Of a DNA stretch of 4,646 bases, positions 1-4,646 are shown piece by piece. The notes beneath the pieces were generated by a model that made no database searches, was not told the origin of the DNA, and saw nothing but the letters and a program-made list of their open reading frames with translations. Each line of letters starts with the position of its first letter. Positions within the stretch are counted from its first letter, which is position 1. The stretch is taken from the IMG/VR virus record IMGVR_UViG_2695420485_000007, one strand, 5' to 3'. The translations under genes and the position numbers were made by a program. The DNA comes from a virus (taxonomy: Duplodnaviria; Heunggongvirae; Uroviricota; Caudoviricetes).

Positions 1-459
1 AAAGGCTCGCAGCTGGCAAAAGATCCGGAGGTGCTCGCGTTTATAGCCCGTAAACAGTGCGAAACGGTGGAGGTGGATGAGGTTCCTGTTTACCGGCAGA
101 AAAAATCAGAGCAGGAGGATAAACCCCGTCGCCGTGAGGTGGCTGCAATACCACAGCCGGACGAAACAAATCCGGAGATGCCACCGCCCGTGGTGATATC
201 TCCTGGTATTGAGTATATGGAGGACGGTCTTCCCGATCCGGTGAAAGCGATGGGGCGTCTTCTGGTGGAGAACATTAATACCGACCCCAGGCTGGCGCTG
301 GATGCGGCTTATAAGCTGGCGCAGTTCACGCACCACAAAAAAGGGGATGCCGGTAAAAAATCGGCAAAAGGTGACGCCGCGAAAAAAGCGGCTAACCGTT
401 TTGCGGTGCCACCACCACCCCGCCTGGTGGTGAATAATGATAATGAGGGCAACGGATGA
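1..459 (+). CDS. 5'-truncated CDS; putative terminase small subunit / DNA-packaging protein, C-terminal part (hypothetical)
   Basis: Frame 1 is open from base 1 with no stop before TGA at 457-459, so the gene probably starts upstream of the window (the track's start at 31 is just the first GTG). Its stop overlaps the ATG of the downstream large terminase (ATGA at 456-459), the usual terS-terL coupling arrangement. The C-terminal tail is basic and low-complexity (KKGDAGKKSAKGDAAKKAA, then PPPP). No diagnostic small-terminase motif was recognised, so the functional call rests on position only. Confidence 0.4.
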   Translation, partial: KGSQLAKDPEVLAFIARKQCETVEVDEVPVYRQKKSEQEDKPRRREVAAIPQPDETNPEMPPPVVISPGIEYMEDGLPDPVKAMGRLLVENINTDPRLALDAAYKLAQFTHHKKGDAGKKSAKGDAAKKAANRFAVPPPPRLVVNNDNEGNG

Positions 460-2117
460 TACCTGTGTGGAGCACGGCCTGCCCGGACTGGGCAGAGCGC
501 CTGAAAAAGGGGCTGTCGATTATTCCGGCTCCGATTTATCCGGACGAGGCCGCACATGCCCTGGCGATTTTTAAACAACTGCGGATTGTGGATGCACCTG
601 GTAGCCCGACGTTCGGGGAGTCCTGTGCACCGTGGGTGTTTGACCTGGTGGCGGCCCTGTTTGGCTCCTATGATGCGCAGACCGGTGTACGCCATATCAA
701 GGAAGTTTTTATCCTTATCCCCAAGAAAAACTCGAAGTCCACGCTGGCCGCGGGGATCATGATGACGGCGCTGTTACTGAACTGGCGGCAGGCGGCGGGT
801 TACACGATTCTGGCCCCGACTGTGGAGGTGGCGGCCAACGCCTTCAACCCTGCCCGGGATATGGTACGACGTGACGATGATCTGGATGACCTCTGCCAGG
901 TGCAGACCCATATCCGGACCATCACCCACAGGGTGACGGACACCACCCTTAAGGTGGTGGCTGCCGATCCGAATACGGTGTCCGGTATCAAGTCCGTGGG
1001 GACACTGATTGATGAACTGTGGCTGTTTGGCAAGCAGTGCAAGGCGGAGGACATGTTACGTGAAGCCATAGGCGGCCTTGCCTCCCGCCCGGAAGGGTTT
1101 GTGGTGTATACGACCACCCAGTCGAATGAACCGCCCGCCGGGGTGTTCAGACAGAAACTGCAGTACGCCCGGGATGTGCGCGACGGCAAAATTCATGATC
1201 CGCACTTTCTGCCGGTGATATTTGAACACCCTCCTGAAATGGTGGAAAGCGGGGCTCACCTGCAGATGGAAAACCTCGCCATGGTCAATCCTAATCTCGG
1301 CTATTCAGTGGATGAGGCCTTTCTGTACCGGGAGTACCGTAAAGCCCGGGAAGCCGGTGAAGAGACATTCCGGGGGTTCATGTCAAAACACGCCAATGTG
1401 GAAATTGGTCTTGCCCTGCGCTCTGACCGCTGGGCGGGGGCTGATTTCTGGGAAGAGCAGGGCCGTTGTATCAGCCTGGACGATATCCTGCGTCGTGCTG
1501 ATGTGGTGACGGTGGGGATTGACGGCGGAGGGCTGGATGATCTGCTGGGGATGTATGTGATTGGGCGTGACCGGGAGACCCGCGAATGGCTGGGCTGGGG
1601 CCATGCCTGGGCGCATGAAACCGCGGTGGTCCGACGGAAGAGCGAGGCGTCCCGGTTTCAGGATTTTGTGGCCTGTGGAGACATGACGATTGTCCGTCGG
1701 GTCGGGGATGACACGGCGGAAGTGGCGGAGTATGTGCGTCGTATTCATGAGGCTGAGTTACTGGATCATATCGGTATTGACCCGTCAGGTGTGGGGCAGA
1801 TTCTGGATTCACTGGCGGAAGCCGGGATCCCCGATGAGAGTGTGGTGGGGATAAGCCAGGGCTGGAAGCTGGGCGGGGCCATCAAAACCACCGAGCGCAA
1901 ACTGGCTGAAGGGGTGCTGATTCACGGTGATCAGCCCCTGATGGCCTGGTGTGTCGGTAATGCCCGGGTGGAGCCTAAAGGTAACGCCATTCTTATCACC
2001 AAACAGGCCAGCGGACGGGGAAAAATTGACCCGCTGATGGCGCTCTTCAATGCGGTGTCCCTGATGTCCCTGAATCCGGAACCGAAAAAGAAAGCGTATG
2101 AGGTTTTTTTCATATAA
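456..2117 (+). CDS. Phage terminase large subunit (Terminase_1-like ATPase plus nuclease)
   Basis: 553-aa ORF with GAGGG ribosome-binding site at 445-449, 6 nt before ATG 456. Walker A-like P-loop PKKNSKST (nt 720-743) followed by ILAPTVEVA; Walker B-like LIDELW; C-terminal acidic nuclease-like segments VVTVGIDGGGLDD, HIGIDPSG and DPLMALFNAV. Motif recognition is from memory of the Terminase_1 family, not a search. Confidence 0.88.
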   Translation: MIPVWSTACPDWAERLKKGLSIIPAPIYPDEAAHALAIFKQLRIVDAPGSPTFGESCAPWVFDLVAALFGSYDAQTGVRHIKEVFILIPKKNSKSTLAAGIMMTALLLNWRQAAGYTILAPTVEVAANAFNPARDMVRRDDDLDDLCQVQTHIRTITHRVTDTTLKVVAADPNTVSGIKSVGTLIDELWLFGKQCKAEDMLREAIGGLASRPEGFVVYTTTQSNEPPAGVFRQKLQYARDVRDGKIHDPHFLPVIFEHPPEMVESGAHLQMENLAMVNPNLGYSVDEAFLYREYRKAREAGEETFRGFMSKHANVEIGLALRSDRWAGADFWEEQGRCISLDDILRRADVVTVGIDGGGLDDLLGMYVIGRDRETREWLGWGHAWAHETAVVRRKSEASRFQDFVACGDMTIVRRVGDDTAEVAEYVRRIHEAELLDHIGIDPSGVGQILDSLAEAGIPDESVVGISQGWKLGGAIKTTERKLAEGVLIHGDQPLMAWCVGNARVEPKGNAILITKQASGRGKIDPLMALFNAVSLMSLNPEPKKKAYEVFFI

Positions 2118-2142
2118 CCCTGCTCACCCTGTAACCATCATG

Positions 2143-2168
2143 AACCGCTGCGGCGGTTTTTTTATTTT
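2143..2168 (+). terminator. Weak intrinsic-terminator-like hairpin with U-tract between the terminase and capsid genes
   Basis: AACCGC (2143-2148), loop TGCG, GCGGTT (2153-2158), followed by TTTTTTTATTTT through 2168. The stem is short (4 GC + 2 AU pairs). It sits directly upstream of the AGGAGG ribosome-binding site at 2170-2175. Confidence 0.35.
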
Positions 2169-2180
2169 CAGGAGGCTGAT

Positions 2181-4118: not shown

Positions 4119-4132
4119 GTCTGATGAGGAGG

Positions 4133-4154
4133 ACGGGAGGCGTGCGCCTCCCGT
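4133..4154 (+). other. Strong GC-rich RNA hairpin just after the capsid stop codon (possible mRNA stability or processing element; no U-tract)
   Basis: Perfect 9-bp stem ACGGGAGGC (4133-4141) with GCCTCCCGT (4146-4154) around loop GTGC, 15 nt after the capsid TGA at 4116-4118. The following sequence AACAGGTTATGG has no T-run, so this is not a canonical intrinsic terminator. Confidence 0.35.
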
Positions 4155-4162
4155 AACAGGTT

Positions 4163-4384
4163 ATGGCAAAGATCCGATATCTGCAGGGCACGCATGATGC
4201 CCGGGCCGGGGATATCCGTGATGTGGCACAGCCGTGTGCGGAGGTGCTGGTTCGCCTGGGGAAGGCGGAGTACATCACAGTGCGACGCCCGGCAGGTCAG
4301 AAAAAGAAACGTGATGCGGAGCATGGCGAATGTGGAACCTTTTGCGGCGAACCCGAAAAAACCAGAAATCAGGACGTGACGTAA
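4163..4384 (+). CDS. Hypothetical small protein (73 aa), uncertain
   Basis: ORF in the spacer between capsid and portal. Only a weak ribosome-binding site (AGG 2 nt before the ATG), and its start lies immediately 3' of the hairpin. The last 55 nt overlap the better-supported portal start at 4330. Contains a Cys/His cluster (HGECGTFCGEP). No recognisable family. Confidence 0.25.
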   Translation: MAKIRYLQGTHDARAGDIRDVAQPCAEVLVRLGKAEYITVRRPAGQKKKRDAEHGECGTFCGEPEKTRNQDVT

Positions 4385-4646
4385 GAGAAGTGGGCTGGCG
4401 GTCCCTGTTTCAGGCGGTGGCTGAGCCTTTTGCCGGTGCCTGGCAGCAGGGTGTGAAAGCCGATCCGGAAACCGTTTTGTCCTTTCACGCGGTGTTTTCT
4501 TGCATTTCGCTGATATCCCAGGATATCGCCAAAATGCGACTGCGCCTGATGCAGACCGATACACAGGGGATCCGCCGTGAAAAACGGCAGGGGGATATTG
4601 CCCGTCTCTGTCGTCGTCCCAATGCACAGCAGAATCGTATCCAGTT
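4330..4646 (+). CDS. Phage portal protein, N-terminal part (3'-truncated by window end)
   Basis: Frame 1 is open from the stop at 4312-4314 to the window end. ATG 4330 is preceded by GGAG at 4318-4321 with an 8-nt spacer. The segment VLSFHAVFSCISLISQDIAKMRLRLM matches, from memory, the conserved N-terminal portal motif (roughly ALxxSAVYACVRLISExIAxLPLxLY), and a downstream RRPNAQQN resembles the portal RPNP-Q motif. Only about 105 aa are visible. Confidence 0.6.
   Translation, partial: MWNLLRRTRKNQKSGRDVREVGWRSLFQAVAEPFAGAWQQGVKADPETVLSFHAVFSCISLISQDIAKMRLRLMQTDTQGIRREKRQGDIARLCRRPNAQQNRIQ

Follow-up and report, generated by a model that had tools for sequence, protein, structure and literature searches.

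The 4,646-bp stretch of viral DNA analysed here (the window; IMG/VR record IMGVR_UViG_2695420485_000007) carries a packaging and head module in which the portal gene lies behind the genes for the prohead protease and the major capsid protein (MCP). The order is small terminase subunit (terS), large terminase (terL), a single gene fusing protease, scaffold, and capsid, a small open reading frame (ORF), and portal, with all genes accepted as real being on the + strand and pointing in the same direction. In our view, the window very probably represents the section for packaging and head formation in the late operon of a long-tailed lambdoid Escherichia coli prophage of the BP-4795, YYZ-2008, JLK-2012, and Stx1a- or Stx2c-phage type, and its gene order is the fixed arrangement of an old HK97-like lineage, not a local rearrangement. 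An earlier note made from the sequence alone had marked the order as non-canonical. The gene identities and coordinates it gave (terL at 456-2117, a 63-nt spacer, the protease-capsid gene at 2181-4118, and the portal gene from 4330 onward) are borne out, as is the difference from HK97 (terS, terL, portal, protease, MCP). As a novelty, the order does not stand: it is a fixed trait and the norm for this lineage, close relatives sharing it are already deposited, and the public genomes of BP-4795, YYZ-2008, and PAJU2 already display the layout.

Gene order in close and distant relatives

To begin with the source, contig CYGS01000103.1 of draft assembly GCA_001277635.1 corresponds in its entirety to the window. 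Its two ends fall inside terS and the portal gene, and it is likely that the assembly broke at both of them owing to the multi-copy nature of the prophage module. A megablast search with the window returned 94 phage records, 92 of which match at 95-99% identity over at least 80% of its length, and these records include Stx1a-, Stx2c-, and Stx2a-converting phages, BP-4795, YYZ-2008, JLK-2012 (Marienburgvirus), and Lys8385Vzw. Moreover, the window matches 1,258 of 5,426 complete E. coli genomes (23%), with a median of two and up to eight copies per genome. With many of the phage and E. coli records, the head module is colinear and near-identical (100% coverage at 96-97.7% identity). The presence of the module in 94 deposited phage records and close to a quarter of complete E. 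coli genomes also disposes of the suggestion in the earlier note that an undescribed phage lineage might be involved. When compared with BP-4795, YYZ-2008, JLK-2012, the Stx1a and Stx2c phages, and Lys8385Vzw, the same genes are found in the same order, with a capsid fusion that is 96-99% identical. Against prophages of the BP-4795 and JLK-2012 type, only allelic differences are seen (about 2-4%, patchily distributed), the window itself being an isolated contig.

The best view of the surroundings is given by JLK-2012, a 57-kb prophage that extends from attL to attR. Its left part holds int, xis, N, cI, cro, O, P, Q, tRNAs, lysis genes, and an HNH gene. Then come terS, terL, the capsid fusion, the small ORF, the portal, a 407-aa repeat protein, Ad1, Hc1, and a gp10-like gene, followed by the tail terminator, the major tail protein, chaperones, the tape measure, and J. 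The copy in E. coli UTME-14 and the partial phage vB_EcoS-705R7 share this layout, tails included, and lambdoid regulatory, lysis, and long-tail genes flank the head module in every relative inspected.

More distantly, the same order is found in Pseudomonas phage PAJU2, Burkholderia phage vB_FKKS2, and Moraxella phage Mcat6, whose capsids are 37-48% identical. With a profile built from four capsids, we fetched 80 further loci from GTDB species genomes, and 85 loci in all were scanned by local tblastn. The fetched loci come from alpha-, beta-, and gammaproteobacterial genomes, with the genera including Enterobacter, Pantoea, Pseudomonas, Marinobacter, Paraburkholderia, and Caballeronia, along with Diaphorobacter, Rhizobium, Brucella, Methylobacterium, Sphingomonas, and Devosia. 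The order was recovered in 79 of these 80 prophage loci. Across the full set, the portal gene lies downstream of the capsid gene and on the same strand in 84 of 85 loci, with the remaining locus giving no portal match, and by tblastn there is no locus among the 85 with a portal between terL and the protease. No portal was found ahead of the terminase genes in the relatives either, this being another place where the earlier note had proposed to look. The terL gene precedes the protease in 73 of the 74 loci with enough sequence and is directly adjacent to it in 67.

Here, we noticed that the terminases vary more freely than what follows them. Among loci L003 to L085, the terL ahead of the block falls into at least four subfamilies, being of the window type in 35, the Burkholderia type in 19, the HK97 type in 11, and the PAJU2 type in six. 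From these sequence comparisons, the conserved block is seen to consist of protease, capsid, (small ORF), and portal, ahead of which the terminases have been exchanged without any change of order. In PAJU2 and vB_PaS_IME307, the order is terS, terL, fused protease-capsid, small ORFs, portal, a post-portal gene, Ad1, and Hc1, and the capsid fusion is 48% identical to that of the window, but the PAJU2 terL belongs to another subfamily and gives no match in a tblastn search with the terL of the window. PAJU2 also has two small ORFs between capsid and portal, the portal-adjacent one not being a clear homolog of the ORF found in the window.

A few points weigh against this view of the window. Its prophage context is drawn from relatives that are 96-98% identical, the window being a whole 4.6-kb contig. 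Our literature search found no paper that explicitly discusses this gene order, and because a dedicated description was not found, the statement that the order is already known rests on deposited annotated genomes. Moreover, the structure models were too poor to lend support, and the assembly pathway and expression control set out further below are inferred from homology and sequence motifs. In practical terms, the rule that places the portal between terminase and capsid is lineage-dependent, with a large proteobacterial HK97-like lineage always showing the reverse, and the position of the portal should not be relied on when satellites or rearranged modules are called from gene order. As posed, the question of the layout matters little, given that among the prophages of pathogenic E. 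coli this type is one of the commonest and the layout is its standard head module.

Comparison with HK97 and the hairpins around the protease-capsid gene

The order terL, portal, protease, MCP, which is typical of HK97-type phages though not strictly defining, is not that of the window. In HK97 itself, the full order is terS, terL, portal, a putative terminator, protease, capsid, a second putative terminator, and Ad1, the two terminators being annotated in the HK97 record before the gp4 protease and after the MCP. Compared with HK97, the window thus has its portal gene and its protease-capsid cassette, bracketed by hairpins, in exchanged positions. The protein families are nonetheless shared, and include the PF04860 portal, the S78 protease, the PF05065 capsid, and, in the relatives, the HNH-TerS-TerL set. 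Sequence identities in the head module are low, at 23% for TerL (against gp2, E 1e-11), 28% for the portal (against gp3), and 30% for the protease, and between the window and HK97 capsids no similarity is detectable by BLAST. In HK97, protease and capsid are also separate genes, and there is no small ORF or repeat-protein gene beside the portal. The neck and tail proteins of the E. coli relatives are much closer to those of HK97 (44% for Hc1, 75% for gp10, 48% for Tc1, and 67% for the major tail protein). Thus, the head module of the E. coli phages is HK97-like but distant, whereas their neck and tail are close to those of HK97. A comparison of the phi4795 head-neck-tail module with HK97 has been made by Lopes et al. 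(2014; PMC4362835), who noted a divergent portal beside conserved Ne1 and Tc1.

As for the hairpins of the window, a terminator-like one (GAACCGC-TGCG-GCGGTTT plus a T run; 2142-2169, + strand) lies in the spacer between terL and the protease-capsid gene. It was picked up by the terminator scan and has a fold z of -2.25, and its function is putative; the window holds four terminator-like sites versus 3.9 in shuffled sequences, which is no excess. PAJU2 and Moraxella Mcat6 also have a hairpin ahead of the protease gene. The capsid stop of the window is followed directly by a 9-bp GC-rich hairpin without a T run (ACGGGAGGC-GTGC-GCCTCCCGT; 4133-4154, + strand), likewise of putative function; the fold of this region does not significantly surpass that of shuffled sequences (z = -1.38). 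A GC-rich hairpin directly follows the MCP stop in all four lineages, namely E. coli, PAJU2, Burkholderia vB_FKKS2, and Moraxella Mcat6, and in PAJU2 and vB_PaS_IME307 the hairpins on either side of the capsid gene are conserved. The hairpins bracketing the protease-capsid gene may serve in mRNA stability, in attenuation, or as insulators.

Conceivably, the place of the portal gene after the capsid cassette is adaptive, with the post-capsid hairpin attenuating transcription or stabilizing the upstream mRNA so that the portal, needed at 12 copies per head, is made below the level of the capsid. Consistent with such an arrangement are the presence of the hairpin in four of the four lineages examined, a portal start embedded in a preceding small ORF whose Shine-Dalgarno (SD) site is weak, and the strict conservation of the gene order. 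We nevertheless regard it as rather unlikely. HK97 has the same two hairpins around its protease and MCP genes with the portal upstream of both, and therefore the hairpins do not require this order, nor does gene order alone need to set the ratio of portal to capsid, and the change in portal-to-capsid stoichiometry that the earlier note had read into the order finds no support here. Moreover, the hairpin at 4133-4154 has neither a T run nor a fold energy better than that of shuffles. In phage lambda, polymerase modified by Q reads through terminators, and the same would be expected of the late transcript in a lambdoid phage. A conserved order may equally reflect the plain inheritance of a co-adapted block.

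Identity of the portal gene and of the element

The portal gene is represented in the window by its first 105 codons (4330-4646, + strand) and continues past the end of the contig. This fragment matches PF04860 (Phage_portal) with an E of 5e-9 and 36.2 bits over the first 52 of 321 profile positions, and phrog_2271 ("portal protein") with an E of 1e-63. The earlier note had offered a profile search of this last ORF as a way to show that it was not a portal, and the PF04860 match speaks the other way. It might still be argued that the ORF is merely portal-like and that the working portal is encoded elsewhere, especially with 36.2 bits lying below the 39.1-bit gathering cutoff and with RefSeq flagging the UTME-14 portal ortholog as a "frameshifted" pseudogene. 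We consider this to be very improbable. That cutoff applies to the whole protein, and the fragment falls short of it because only the first 52 positions of the profile are present. In fact, the full-length ortholog from the 97.7%-identical UTME-14 prophage of E. coli (454 aa; L002 24330-25694) matches PF04860 from end to end (E 7e-81, 272 bits), and thus belongs to this family, and it also matches solved HK97-family portals. The whole JLK-2012 prophage has no second annotated portal, and HK97-type portal matches upstream of the capsid are absent from all 85 loci. Accordingly, for the relatives, the non-portal reading is already refuted.

Among the four lineages, the portals are 36-44% identical to each other, and a profile built from them matches the solved portal 8cez/8fql (E 3e-42), a chain of 424 aa that is the same length as HK97 gp3. 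The ATG at 4330 has a GGAG 8 nt upstream and lies within the preceding small ORF, whose last 55 nt it overlaps. An N-terminal extension ahead of the EPFxGAWQ motif is present in all four aligned lineages, and this supports the ATG at 4330 as the portal start.

The "frameshifted" flag can apparently be traced to the other end of the gene. Beyond the window end, the stop codon of the portal gene and the start of the next gene, which encodes the 407-aa tandem-repeat protein, overlap in the sequence ATGA. A tract of five G residues (G5) lies 12 nt before this overlap (L002 25675-25694 in UTME-14; about 1.3 kb past the window end) and corresponds to the split form, which is common, the 454-aa portal clusters totaling more than 4,700 sequences. 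Rare G6 alleles fuse the portal to the repeat protein and give products of 723-784 aa, and it is these fused variants, used as references, that appear to give rise to the flag. The same split and fusion would account for the 859-position "portal" profile of phrog_2271 and for the repeat protein being labeled "portal protein". RefSeq calls of a frameshifted portal pseudogene in these prophages hence look like an annotation artifact of the G5/G6 tract.

As a separate observation, the repeat protein (L002 25691-26914; L003 6054-7058) is built of 46-aa units with IPVPRDGRDYDP... motifs and has a weakly CBM_5_12-like C-terminus. Most loci of the lineage keep it directly behind the portal; the Burkholderia and Moraxella phages do not.

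The earlier note had also raised the possibility of a satellite or capsid-forming island. Such phage-inducible chromosomal islands of the capsid-forming kind (cf-PICIs), which make their own heads and borrow tails, encode HNH, TerS, TerL, capsid, protease, portal, and connectors as well, and the proteobacterial ones place the capsid before the portal; the window, moreover, is too short to show tail genes. As described for the EcCIEDL933 type (bioRxiv 10.1101/2022.09.08.507074), these islands span about 15 kb and have int-alpA-rep but no lysis or tail genes, and the proteobacterial order is capsid-protease-portal-connectors and then hnh-terS-terL (bioRxiv 10.1101/2022.09.08.507074). The module examined here differs on both counts. 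When compared by gene content and order, the relatives of the window are complete prophages of 45-60 kb with full tail and lysis modules, and judged on these near-identical relatives, the island plan does not apply. As to gene order, HNH-terS-terL come ahead of protease-capsid-portal here, with the protease placed before the capsid. Every near-identical copy inspected has a full tail module after it and Q and lysis genes before it, JLK-2012 is an attL-to-attR prophage of 57 kb, and the 92 closely matching records were deposited as Stx-converting or other phages. Together with integrase, cI/cro, O/P, HNH, and HK97-like tail genes between attL and attR, this identifies the near-identical copies as parts of complete lambdoid siphovirus-type prophages, not satellites. 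Hence, an origin from a cf-PICI-like island is already largely refuted, and we give it only a very slight chance.

Neither is the head module of the lambda type, which has gpB as portal, gpC as S49 protease together with Nu3, gpD, and gpE. The Pfam search of the window found none of the lambda head families, with S78 and PF05065 turning up instead, and the "portal protein B" given in some records is no more than an annotation name.

Lastly, a short draft-assembly contig of a multi-copy repeat might raise the suspicion that recent rearrangement, a scar of recombination, or an assembly artifact peculiar to this sequence had produced the order, as might the patchy identity to the best complete genome (94-100% per 400 nt), which suggests mosaicism among prophage copies. 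This has next to no probability and is already refuted by colinearity over all 4,646 nt with more than 1,200 complete genomes and 92 phage records. The same order in relatives from three proteobacterial classes, with capsids only 38-52% identical, also speaks against the rearranged head module suggested earlier.

The fused gene, its candidate internal start, and neighboring features

The central gene of the module encodes a 645-aa fusion of prohead protease, a helical scaffold (delta-like) region, and an HK97-fold MCP (2181-4118, + strand), and it begins with a GTG behind a strong AGGAGG site. Peptidase_S78 (PF04586) is matched at aa 48-152 (34.8 bits; cutoff 21) and Phage_capsid (PF05065) at aa 386-635 (55.3 bits; cutoff 24.2), while phrog_617 matches from end to end (E 2e-260). 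In alignment with HK97 gp4, its catalytic His65 and Ser114 correspond to His55 and Ser110 of the fusion, which are invariant across 20 orthologs, as expected of an S78 prohead protease. A profile from four MCPs of the family matches solved major capsid proteins (9d9w, E 2e-17). The capsid part is therefore assigned to PF05065 and, putatively, the HK97 fold, with an N-terminal helical scaffold region, the AlphaFold2 (AF2) model of the capsid domain being poor. In the AF2 model of the whole fusion, made with 20 orthologs at 73-77% identity, the mean predicted local distance difference test (pLDDT) score is 42, and only the protease core and a predicted helical hairpin at aa 195-262 (local pLDDT 71-84) are moderately confident. 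A Foldseek search of the PDB with this model gave no matches at E<=0.001, and the model was not used.

The capsid fusion belongs to a cluster of 9,916 member sequences, with orthologs at about 77% identity in Salmonella, Enterobacter, Klebsiella, Serratia, Kosakonia, and Pantoea. Protease and capsid are fused in 45 loci, including those of E. coli and PAJU2, and are separate genes in 32, these being the Burkholderia and Moraxella phages and 30 others. Two E. coli ORFs, each from a single contig, join terL-protease-capsid or capsid-portal in one product (P0172, 1079 aa, and P0174, 784 aa). Frameshifts from sequencing or assembly are the most likely explanation for both, rather than genuine fusions.

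More conspicuously, the fused gene has an in-frame candidate initiation site within it (2741-2759, + strand), where a TAAGGA (2741-2746) lies 10 nt upstream of an ATG at 2757 (Met193). This ATG sits at the point where the ancestral stand-alone capsid gene started. In the fused gene of PAJU2, an internal AGGAGG is found 8 nt before an ATG at the same position, and this AGGAGG-ATG is conserved in vB_PaS_IME307. Among the 45 fused loci, which are kin and whose counts are thus not independent, an ATG or GTG occupies the position in 41. There, an SD of at least 4 nt is found in 40 of the 45, where the background, taken from the remaining in-frame positions of these ORFs, is 22%, and one of at least 6 nt in 23, where it is 1.2%. 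Typically, the internal SD is AGGAGG or AAGGAGG, placed 5-8 nt from the start. The motif doubles as the codons for a Lys-Glu-Gly stretch, yet the surrounding linker is poorly conserved.

Based on the conservation of this motif, we tentatively propose, at slightly under an even chance, that the fused gene is a nested pair across the whole terL-protease/capsid-portal lineage. A start at Met193 would yield a free scaffold-capsid protein beside the full-length fusion, and the dose of protease per procapsid would then be set translationally. If true, this would explain how phages with the fused gene escape a 1:1 ratio of protease to capsid. A literature search on fused protease-capsid genes with internal starts found no specific description, and the proposed internal start is the sole part of the present findings that might reward an experiment. 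Lambda C and Nu3 offer a known case of nested in-frame head genes, in which the protease is of the S49 family and the nested product is the scaffold. Were Met193 used, a single frame would similarly give a long protease-containing product and a shorter one with scaffold and capsid, though the nested product here would be the scaffold-capsid protein itself and not a scaffold.

By homology with HK97, the module might work as follows. All genes would be read from a Q-antiterminated late transcript, and the portal would nucleate a procapsid of scaffold-capsid subunits, into which the S78 protease would be carried by its fusion to some or all of the capsid subunits. The protease would then remove itself and the helical scaffold region, and TerS and TerL, with the upstream HNH protein, would package DNA through the portal. 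It is probably ribosome-binding sites, an initiation site within the fused gene, and mRNA hairpins that set the relative amounts, and not the order of the genes.

Upstream of the fusion are the two terminase genes. The C-terminal 152 codons of terS, cut by the contig start, occupy 1-459 (+ strand) and match phrog_641 ("terminase small subunit", E 2e-47), and the full TerS ortholog from the UTME-14 prophage (187 aa; L002 19896-20459) matches PF03592 (Terminase_2). The 3' end of terS overlaps the start of terL by 4 nt. The latter (456-2117, + strand) encodes a 553-aa protein that matches PF03354 (TerL_ATPase, E 2e-11), PF20441 (TerL_nuclease, E 1.5e-9), and the PHROG profiles phrog_9 and phrog_7622 (E<1e-140).

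In other searches of the window, no RNA families were found with Rfam, no repeats beyond short ones at chance level, and no sigma-70-like promoters in the promoter scan. The long antisense ORFs were set aside as being without support, such ORFs being an expected by-product of a coding region with 58% GC. A foreign origin based on GC content was also dropped. In a relative, the entire late region, HK97-like tail genes included, has 53-60% GC, and the GC content of the head module is for this reason not distinctive.

Between capsid and portal, and absent from the account of the earlier note, is a conserved ORF of 73 aa (4163-4384, + strand) that matches phrog_829 (E 2e-39) and gives no match in Pfam. 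Its weak SD comes directly after the 9-bp GC hairpin. Homologs, which share an N-terminal domain of about 45 aa and have variable C-terminal tails, fill the capsid-portal gap in 48 of 84 loci and are found at the same position in the Moraxella and Burkholderia phages. Those in the large protein database are all near-identical E. coli sequences, and a deep alignment was for that reason not obtained; the single-sequence AF2 model (pLDDT 48) is unusable. Separately, we observed that this same gap carries 3.6-5.8 kb of inserted cargo in five loci (L052 9450-15350; L029 5100-9170; L025, L032, and L061). The cargo of the Sphingopyxis locus comprises two HNH_3 homing endonucleases, methyltransferases, a phosphoribosyltransferase, and a GT2 glycosyltransferase. 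The capsid-portal junction thus looks like an insertion hotspot, possibly one for virion-modification genes.

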